Below are positions 1 to 267 of a stretch of 18,242 nucleotides of DNA, piece by piece; positions within the stretch are counted from its first letter, which is position 1; each line of letters starts with the position of its first letter. This DNA is from Leptospirales bacterium. Lineage in GTDB: Bacteria; Spirochaetota; Leptospiria; Turneriellales; JAOUFE01. The translations under genes were made by a program, and so were the position numbers. The stretch spans positions 1 through 18,242 of the forward strand of contig JBEQLE010000079.1 of NCBI GenBank assembly GCA_040326155.1. Reading direction: 5' to 3'. Below the pieces are notes generated by a model. It saw only the letters and a program-made list of their open reading frames with translations. It was not told the origin of the DNA and made no database searches.

Positions 1-15
1 TCATGATGTACCTCC
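1..15 (-). promoter_or_regulatory. Shine-Dalgarno site plus start codon of a minus-strand gene that runs off the left edge of the window
   Basis: Minus strand reads GGAGGT-acatc-ATG-A (GGAGGT = 15..10, ATG = 4..2), a 5-nt spacing. Only one codon of the gene is visible. Confidence 0.7.
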
Positions 16-26
16 ATTAAAACTCT

Positions 27-238
27 TCTGCTGCACCCTTATATTGGCTGTTCGGCAACCCACCATGTGGGGCTATTTCGCCCCACTTGGCAGTCAGAAG
101 AAACCAGGGAAGCGGTTGTGTTCTTAGCATTTGATGATGCGGGCCACGAGTAGCTTTCCCTGGTTATATTATCGTACCGTTCACTTACGTTAGCGCTTCG
201 ATAACATGGGTAGCTTTACATATAAGGCCAAGAGCAGA
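27..238 (-). ncRNA. Candidate structured non-coding RNA or leader; possibly an IS110-family non-coding end (bridge-RNA-like)
   Basis: Nested inverted repeats: 27-32/233-238, 37-44/220-227 (8 bp perfect), 46-50/56-60, 67-73/80-86 (7 bp), 102-111/156-165 (10 bp perfect) enclosing 127-130/137-140, and 166-174/199-207. Two stems need G-U pairs that form only on the minus strand. More GC-rich than the adjacent TA locus. The IS110 assignment rests on remembered resemblance only. Confidence 0.55.
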
Positions 239-267
239 TCAAAGTTTGGTAGGCGATGTTCGGGGTT

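Follow-up and report, generated by a model that had tools for sequence, protein, structure and literature searches.

The window, by which we mean the whole stretch of DNA analysed, comprises bases 1-18,242 of contig C148 from genome G000, which is assembled in 171 contigs. At its left edge, the minus strand carries an ATG preceded by the Shine-Dalgarno sequence GGAGG, both confirmed from the sequence as the initial annotation had reported them, so the gene that they open runs off the contig start. The left non-coding end upstream of this ATG is about 220 nt long and adjoins the 5′ half of a REP-like genome repeat (Table 1). Further along the minus strand, 268-531 and 669-917 hold a ribbon-helix-helix ORF (RHH_1, E 1e-4) upstream of a PIN-domain ORF, the latter matching profile positions 58-115 of 120 only, below the Pfam cut-off. 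Judged by these matches, the two ORFs are probably a VapBC-like pair with a truncated or frameshifted toxin gene, and a 71%-identical paralogous stretch was found on contig C111.

We assign window 1-226, on the minus strand, to the left non-coding end of an IS110-group insertion sequence that encodes a bridge RNA, with a probability of about 0.92. An IS110 bridge-RNA-like element had been the first choice of the initial annotation, and five lines of evidence agree on it: the gene family, the presence of several copies in the genome, the covariation of the stems, the covariation of the guides, and a covariance model built without any sequence of G000. Of the recombinase of this copy, the ATG alone lies on contig C148, since the assembly broke where the recombinase gene starts, and the opposite end of the copy appears to be carried by contig C40. 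The features of IS110-group bridge RNAs were found wherever they could be tested, the exceptions being the off-contig recombinase, the core dinucleotide and transcription.

Table 1. Features of the element and its flank in the window (positions in window coordinates)
Feature	Position	Strand	Basis or remark
Recombinase ATG	2..4	-	Read from sequence; remainder of the IS110 gene lies past the contig start
Shine-Dalgarno GGAGG	11..15	-	Sequence and conserved GGAGG alignment columns
U-run	16..24	-	UUUU at 19-22; adjoins the DBL closing stem; sequence
Bridge RNA core (TBL and DBL)	20..167	-	Covariance model R1
DBL (donor-binding loop)	25-100	-	
DBL closing stem, 3′ strand	25..34	-	Partner of 90-100; helix 3, 11 pairs, 99.0% paired, 6 double-changed
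Right donor guide and handshake segment	35..45	-	Reverse complement contains CCTTATAT; own left terminus at 220-227
DBL small apical hairpin	46..60	-	Fold and alignment
Left donor guide AUGGUGGGU	58..66	-	Same sense as right end ATAGTGGGT; one G-for-A difference
Extra GC-rich hairpin in DBL 5′ strand	67..86	-	Gap columns in the 34 other alignment rows
DBL closing stem, 5′ strand	90..100	-	Covariation
TBL (target-binding loop)	104-163	-	
TBL closing stem, 3′ strand	104..113	-	Partner of 153-163; helix 1, 7 pairs, 5 double-changed
Right target guide and handshake segment	114..126	-	Reverse complement GGTTGTGTTCTTA; 4/5 tested positions match the C40 right junction
TBL apical hairpin GCAU-N6-AUGC	127..140	-	Helix 2, 4 pairs, 100% paired, 3 double-changed
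Left target guide region UACUCGUGGCCC	141..152	-	8/9 positions match own left flank
TBL closing stem, 5′ strand	153..163	-	Covariation
5′ stem-loop	166..207	-	Fold and alignment; longer than in most relatives
-10-like hexamer AAAGCT, TGT before it	212..217	-	Columns 9-14 of alignment A2
Left terminus	219..226	-	Right donor TATATG (224-219) and core dinucleotide read as CT (226-225); copies diverge upstream
Flank, 5′ half of REP-like repeat	227..258	-	Left target CTCTTGGC at 234-227

To identify the gene that begins at the contig edge, we examined the other copies in G000 and the full-length relatives. Contig C29 (6377-6610) holds a copy 91% identical over window 1-235, and its contig stops 36 bases into the gene. 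A second copy on C161 (512-695) is 76% identical over 1-175 and is followed by a truncated ORF of 199 aa that belongs to DEDD_Tnp_IS110 (PF01548, E 7.7e-30). The metagenome contig L027 (1456 bp) contains a complete element of 1397 bp, of which the left end is 87% identical to that of the window and the right end 91% identical to C40. The first 12-13 residues of the L027 recombinase are those read in C29 before that contig ends, and its 394-aa ORF carries both PF01548 and PF02371. As such, the gene family proposed by the initial annotation was found in sister and full-length copies alike. Going by L027, the element of the window would be about 1.4 kb in size. The left end is followed by the gene, and the right end runs for 12 nt past the stop codon; this long left end and short right end, as read from the sequence, is the IS110-group layout described in PMC11208160.

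Among related genomes, 4 of 41 gave a match and, within the order, 5 of 34 did so at E <= 1e-40 (G000 included in both counts). One Spirochaetia MAG contig encodes a 394-aa ORF with both IS110 domains, and PF01548 and PF02371 were both present in P0001. A protein search at E <= 1e-30 returned 167 homologues, almost all 394 aa long, and a precomputed column gave both IS110 domains for each of the 120 listed among them. When the L027 protein was compared with the solved IS621 recombinase (8wt6), phmmer aligned the two at E 4e-14 and placed D8, E56, D96, D99 and S311 of L027 opposite D11, E60, D102, D105 and S241 of IS621, the IS621 numbering using a +2 chain offset for 8wt6 that was derived from the alignment itself. 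The catalytic roles of these IS621 residues are described in PMC11208158. All five residues are invariant across an alignment of 32 homologues, which also served as the seed for a metagenome scan that yielded 80 loci. At one of these loci, L044, the donor-binding loop (DBL) and the gene are kept, and unrelated repetitive sequence stands in place of the target-binding loop (TBL) and the 5′ stem-loop; this left end may be truncated or rearranged. In four public sediment-type runs, contigs with relatives of the left end were present whose matches stop at 227, 243 or 259 and whose continuations differ, and no joints were found in the contigs from these runs.

The region upstream of the gene is more strongly structured than shuffled sequence, as had been claimed for it. 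The minus strand of 1-260 folds at -90.4 kcal/mol compared with -67.0 +/- 4.7 kcal/mol in 200 shuffles (z -5.0), none of which was as good. The plus strand is nearly as good (z -4.6), so fold energy alone does not assign the strand. To examine which helices are conserved, we used the 42 of 75 sources that had left-end landmarks and dropped 6 exact duplicates; with the divergent L057 omitted and C29 and C161 added, alignment A2 comprised 37 left ends. RNAalifold on this alignment returned the TBL closing stem, the TBL apical hairpin and the DBL closing stem. Over the 22 pairs of these three helices, 97.7% of the cells were paired in the 37 aligned left ends, compared with 90.5% in shuffles and at most 58.5% in slid controls. 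Changes on both sides were observed at 14 pairs (7.1 in shuffles), and the covariation score was 0.289 compared with 0.156 in shuffles that ignore relatedness, none of 500 being as high. The conserved helices also contain G-U pairs, for example 14 at one pair and 7 at another, which fit the minus-strand sense.

Several of the stems first drawn from the single sequence correspond to these helices. The pairing of 102-111 with 156-165 around GCAT-N6-ATGC is the TBL closing stem with its apical hairpin, both supported by covariation; the pairing of 166-174 with 199-207 belongs to a real and conserved 5′ stem-loop; and the GC hairpin is real, at 67-86. In the case of the closing helix (27-44 with 220-238) that was thought to enclose four stem-loops, the strands are indeed complementary, with 8 bp at 37-44/220-227 and 6 bp at 27-32/233-238, but they do not form a conserved RNA helix. 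We rejected it because 227-238 lies outside the element, with flanks that differ in C29, C161 and all homologues, because 25-34 pairs with 90-100 in the covariation-supported DBL closing stem, and because the 8-bp part is the donor guide matching the left terminus of the element itself. The 6-bp part is a chance pairing between a strand of the DBL stem and flanking host DNA that is found in no other copy. The count of four enclosed stem-loops needs correction as well.

The extra 20-nt hairpin at 67-86 separates the left donor guide from the DBL closing stem. All three G000 copies have it, the 76%-identical C161 included, and all 34 other aligned elements lack it (34/34); two sediment contigs likewise lack 21 letters at 64-86. 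The RNA, composed of the 5′ stem-loop, the TBL and the DBL, would be roughly 180 nt long. The U-run that follows the DBL closing stem may mark where the RNA ends on its 3′ side or may act as an attenuator, judged from its letters, and a consensus terminator scan of 1-400 gave no minus-strand terminator.

We then compared the region with RNA family models. Release 15 of Rfam gave no match at gathering score in the whole window, and hence no curated family, and at E up to 10 the stretch 1-400 gave three chance-level matches only, all at 253-334, outside the RNA of the element. A covariance model of our own (R1), built from 34 metagenome and relative sequences and none from G000, matched window 20-167 on the minus strand with 83.6 bits (E 1.2e-20) over the full model length; C29 scored 81.7 bits and C161 57.2 bits. 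Model R1 gave no match around two unrelated IS110 genes of the genome (on C100 and C104) or at the remnants described below. The initial annotation had kept open a retron or DRT ncRNA, which would be an msr/msd RNA or a DRT-type ncRNA lying before a reverse transcriptase gene. Such systems share with the locus only the general picture of a structured ncRNA before a gene. Since the sister copies and all homologues have an IS110 recombinase gene downstream and no reverse transcriptase there, and since Rfam gives no retron match, we give this reading next to no chance.

According to the cited parts of PMC11208160 and PMC11208158, in each IS621 loop the 5′ strand shares its sense with the left half-site and the 3′ strand forms the complement of the core and of the right half-site, with a short handshake segment that matches the other partner. 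To see whether the loops of the present RNA relate to DNA in the same way, we compared them with the flanks and ends of the elements. The 5′ strand of the TBL (A2 columns 82-90) matched its own left flank at 7.08 of 9 positions compared with 4.82 for non-cognate flanks in 36 loci, a difference reached in 0 of 20000 permutations. Likewise, the reverse complement of the TBL 3′ strand matched the 5 nt after GGGTGT at 3.96 of 5 positions, compared with 2.07 for non-cognate loci (26 loci, 0/20000). The permutations ignore the relatedness of the elements; the flanks, though, lie outside the element. Low scores on the left side (3-4/9) were obtained for C161, L032, L033, L054 and L076. The left target guide of the window has one mismatch to its flank. 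The contigs C148 and C29 differ mainly in their guide loops, and each loop fits its own flank, at 8/9 and 9/9, respectively. The right target guide of the window copy differs at one position from that of its near-twin L027, and its comparison with the C40 junction presumes the linkage between C148 and C40 that we infer.

The donor side follows the same rule. The left donor guide and the right end share 9/9 positions in L057, with ATAGGGAGT in both, and also in L015. The right donor guide tracks the left-end variants in L057, L029, L016, L058 and L050, and 9 positions are shared at both donor sides in L057. The rule fails in L047 and L054 and, for the left donor guide only, in L050 and L058. 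As such, covariation of the guides with the flanks and with the element ends was observed in the same RNA that shows covariation of its helices.

Outside TTATATG (window 225 downwards) at the left and GGGTGT at the right, the copies diverge. At both junctions T is constant, whereas the base before it differs, being CT at the left and GT at the right, and neither loop pairs its 5′ strand with the core T. We tried several registers for a fixed 2-nt core by hand, and none pairs all four guides with the same dinucleotide. We therefore leave the core as xT, and the placement of CT at the left terminus, as read from the sequence, is a provisional register. By reading, the guide-matched flank and TTATAT are separated by one extra nucleotide in about 15 of the 37 loci (G 7, A 5, T 2, C 1). 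An A or T at this position is usually matched by the next RNA base, and a G never is. The extra base may come from a target loop that is one base longer or from a donor-type core GT kept at the left junction.

The flank of the element belongs to a REP-like repeat with 50 copies in G000 at up to 3 mismatches, C148:232-250 among them, whereas the reversed control gave 0. In intact copies a short hairpin comes next, followed by TCGGGTCTCGC. Written as a consensus, the repeat is approximately CGCATAACAAATTTTGATCTGCTC, a variable short hairpin and TCGGGTCTCGCA, sometimes followed by GCTCGACCACATTTTGGGGCT. Within the repeat, the copies of the insertion sequence occupy three different points, those of the C148/C166, C29 and C161 types. 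On C40, the element is flanked on its right by the corresponding 3′ half of the repeat. When the two flanks were joined through one CT, they formed the hairpin TGGCC-TGTTC-GGCCA, and a paralogous copy of the repeat has the same form, ACGACC-TGTTC-GGTCGT. Furthermore, L027 is inserted in the same repeat at the same place. Based on the joined-flank hairpin, the paralogous copy and the placement of L027, we read the target of the window copy as the loop of a REP-like hairpin, reconstructed as ...CTCTTGGC-CT-GTTCGGCCA... (CT-GTTCGG). The empty target was reconstructed from C148, C40 and the paralogous repeats because an orthologous empty site was not found in the 12 relatives searched with flank 226-1500, which gave paralogous pieces only.

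We also compared the left and right target guides with each other. In 21 of the 37 elements, the first five bases of the two guides (A2 columns 82-86 and 121-125) agree at at least 4 of 5 positions. Overall, 124 of 185 positions agree, which was reached in 0 of 20000 permutations; the copy in the window has 0/5. Since the guides start alike, the RNA would read both arms of a short inverted repeat, with the crossover at the 3′ edge of the loop. We tentatively suggest, at odds slightly short of even, that this is a clade of bridge recombinases specialised for hairpin loops. A loop that can have either 5 or 6 nt would account for the shift in register, by one nucleotide, at the left junction. If the clade is so specialised, the copy in the window would read one arm and the loop of the REP-like hairpin, and the structure of the target DNA, or a symmetric read-out of two arms, would be part of site choice in the clade.

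With respect to expression, A10 and T14 of A2 columns 9-14 are invariant in the 37 sequences. These columns read TATACT in one subfamily and the TGT-preceded AAAGCT, a weak -10 hexamer, in the subfamily of the window. All right ends listed contain TTGACA overlapping the stop codon, and by hand count TTGACA and A2 columns 9-14 are 17 nt apart once the right and left ends are joined through one core. IS621 has a circle-dependent promoter (PMC11208160), and the arrangement of TTGACA and the -10-like hexamer fits such a promoter. A consensus promoter scan of 1-400 gave no minus-strand site in the integrated copy; considering that a missing promoter in the integrated copy is what the circle model predicts, this result is not a positive test. 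By analogy with IS621, the element would be excised as a circle, and TTGACA, from the right end, would then come together with the -10-like hexamer, from the left end, as a promoter transcribing the RNA. The RNA, with ends as predicted above, would then be loaded onto the DEDD/Ser recombinase, which would catalyse insertion of the element by recombination at the xT core.

The position of the U-run, after the DBL closing stem and just before the Shine-Dalgarno sequence, would also suit a structured 5′ leader without guide function, whose sole role would be to control how the transposase mRNA is translated or terminated. Furthermore, IS110 non-coding ends were earlier thought to regulate recombinase expression, as recounted in PMC11208160. 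However, a leader of this kind leaves unexplained why the loop sequences track target flanks and element ends across dozens of loci, and the new cis-regulatory leader suggested by the initial annotation is not needed to explain the data. We consider it very improbable and retain the assignment to a guide-bearing bridge RNA.

Besides C29 and C161, G000 contains remnants on C149 and C166. At C149:74345-74505, about 21 nt from the left terminus are joined directly to the final 42 nt ahead of the ATG, with 31 codons after these, and the entire bridge RNA is deleted. At C166:648-706, about 32 nt of the left terminus alone remain, inside the REP-like repeat. Contig C97 holds a fragment of the recombinase gene. 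Contig C40 starts within the 3′ end of the gene and reaches ...TTGACATAGTGGGTGT near position 180, and short solo right ends occur on C67, C94 and C170. The solo right ends on C67 (~679, minus strand) and C94 (~38941, minus strand) are about 26-36 nt long and are joined upstream to the repeat's own ...CGCA(C/T)AACAAATTT; the end of the recombinase gene carries the same AACAAATTTT as this upstream junction. Because the gene ends with the same AACAAATTTT, the two sites resemble scars of deletion between two 10-nt microhomologies, and from their sequences they look like deletions that removed the whole element save the right end.

Family searches of G000 identified C161, C100 and C104 with PF01548 and C100, C97 and C104 with PF02371. 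The hits at C100:34646-35524 and C104:23530-24417 are two further full-length IS110-family recombinase genes, with open frames of 374 and 375 aa, respectively. As these two genes belong to other IS110 lineages, an intact recombinase gene of the present clade is absent from the G000 assembly in the PF01548 and PF02371 searches.

These findings raise the possibility that window 1-226 is a bridge-RNA left end but a dead relic, with a recombinase that is lost or broken and an RNA no longer made or used. Decayed copies are present in the genome (C149, C166, C161, C97 and the solo right ends on C67, C94 and C170), the assembly has no intact gene of the clade, and the right target guide is one position off that of the near-twin L027. 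On the other hand, the three conserved helices and both guide loops are intact in the window, which model R1 matches over its full length, and the guides of C29 and C148 differ, each suited to its own site. In addition, the breaks of C148, C29 and C40 all fall where the element begins or ends, as those of collapsed near-identical repeats would in short-read assemblies. We regard a relic as unlikely, and we continue to read the window as the left end of an element that encodes a bridge RNA.

Since bridge RNAs were already described in 2024, and most IS110 elements were predicted to have one (PMC11208160), the present RNA belongs to a known class and is not a new kind. In this class we now place a 220-nt structured region that was unannotated and has no Rfam family, and the guides, the target and the ends of the element were assigned base by base. 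Several contig breaks and a set of scars in a spirochaete-type genome are thereby accounted for, and a 50-copy REP-like repeat is identified as the landing pad. With about 35 distinct natural guide/target pairs, the clade is well sampled, and it brings in natural guides that are longer and targets in hairpin loops. It may help in understanding or engineering bridge recombinases, and the known mechanism is unchanged.

Taken all together, the element resembles IS621 of E. coli, as far as that system is set out in the cited parts of PMC11208160 (Durrant et al. 2024) and PMC11208158 (Hiraizumi et al. 2024), in many respects. Both encode their ncRNA in a long left end, ahead of the gene for a DEDD and Ser recombinase, and both RNAs have a 5′ stem-loop and, after it, a pair of internal loops. 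Within each loop, the 5′ strand runs in the sense of the left half-site and the 3′ strand forms the complement of the core and of the right half-site; the stretches that adjoin the right guides on their 3′ side match the non-cognate partner, as in the handshake of IS621. Both have TTGACA in the right end, a -10 hexamer in the left end and a core with an invariant T, and the target of both is a REP-type repeat. In contrast with IS621, the recombinase is of 394 aa, compared with 326-328 aa, and distant at the E-value given above. The guides appear longer, at 9-10 nt for the left target guide and about 6-7 nt for the right, and so does the handshake-like complementarity, of up to 4-5 nt. Furthermore, pairing of the loop 5′ strands with the core T and a common first core base at the two junctions, CT and GT here, set IS621 apart, and the G000 copies have the extra hairpin in the DBL.

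The IS110 element ISPpu10 of Pseudomonas putida (bioRxiv 10.64898/2026.03.19.712850) likewise targets copies of an intergenic stem-loop repeat. As described there, the stem-loop of ISPpu10 is a GC-rich 5′ extension beside the target, whereas the insertion point here is inside the hairpin loop, and unlike ISPpu10, the guides read both arms in many of the present relatives. The seekRNA of the IS1111 group (Siddiquee et al. 2024, PMC11187229) shares the recombinase family and the RNA-guided choice of target. IS1111 elements carry their RNA in a long right end and have subterminal inverted repeats (PMC11208160). We rejected an IS1111-group seekRNA element here, the RNA being in the left end and the right end being 12 nt; by reading, no terminal inverted repeat was seen between the ends of L027 (TATATG... 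and ...GGGTGT). As such, the element is a further member of the IS110 elements with bridge RNAs and a distant relative of IS621, distinguished in that its guide matches are longer, its targets are hairpin loops and its donor loop carries a lineage-specific hairpin.
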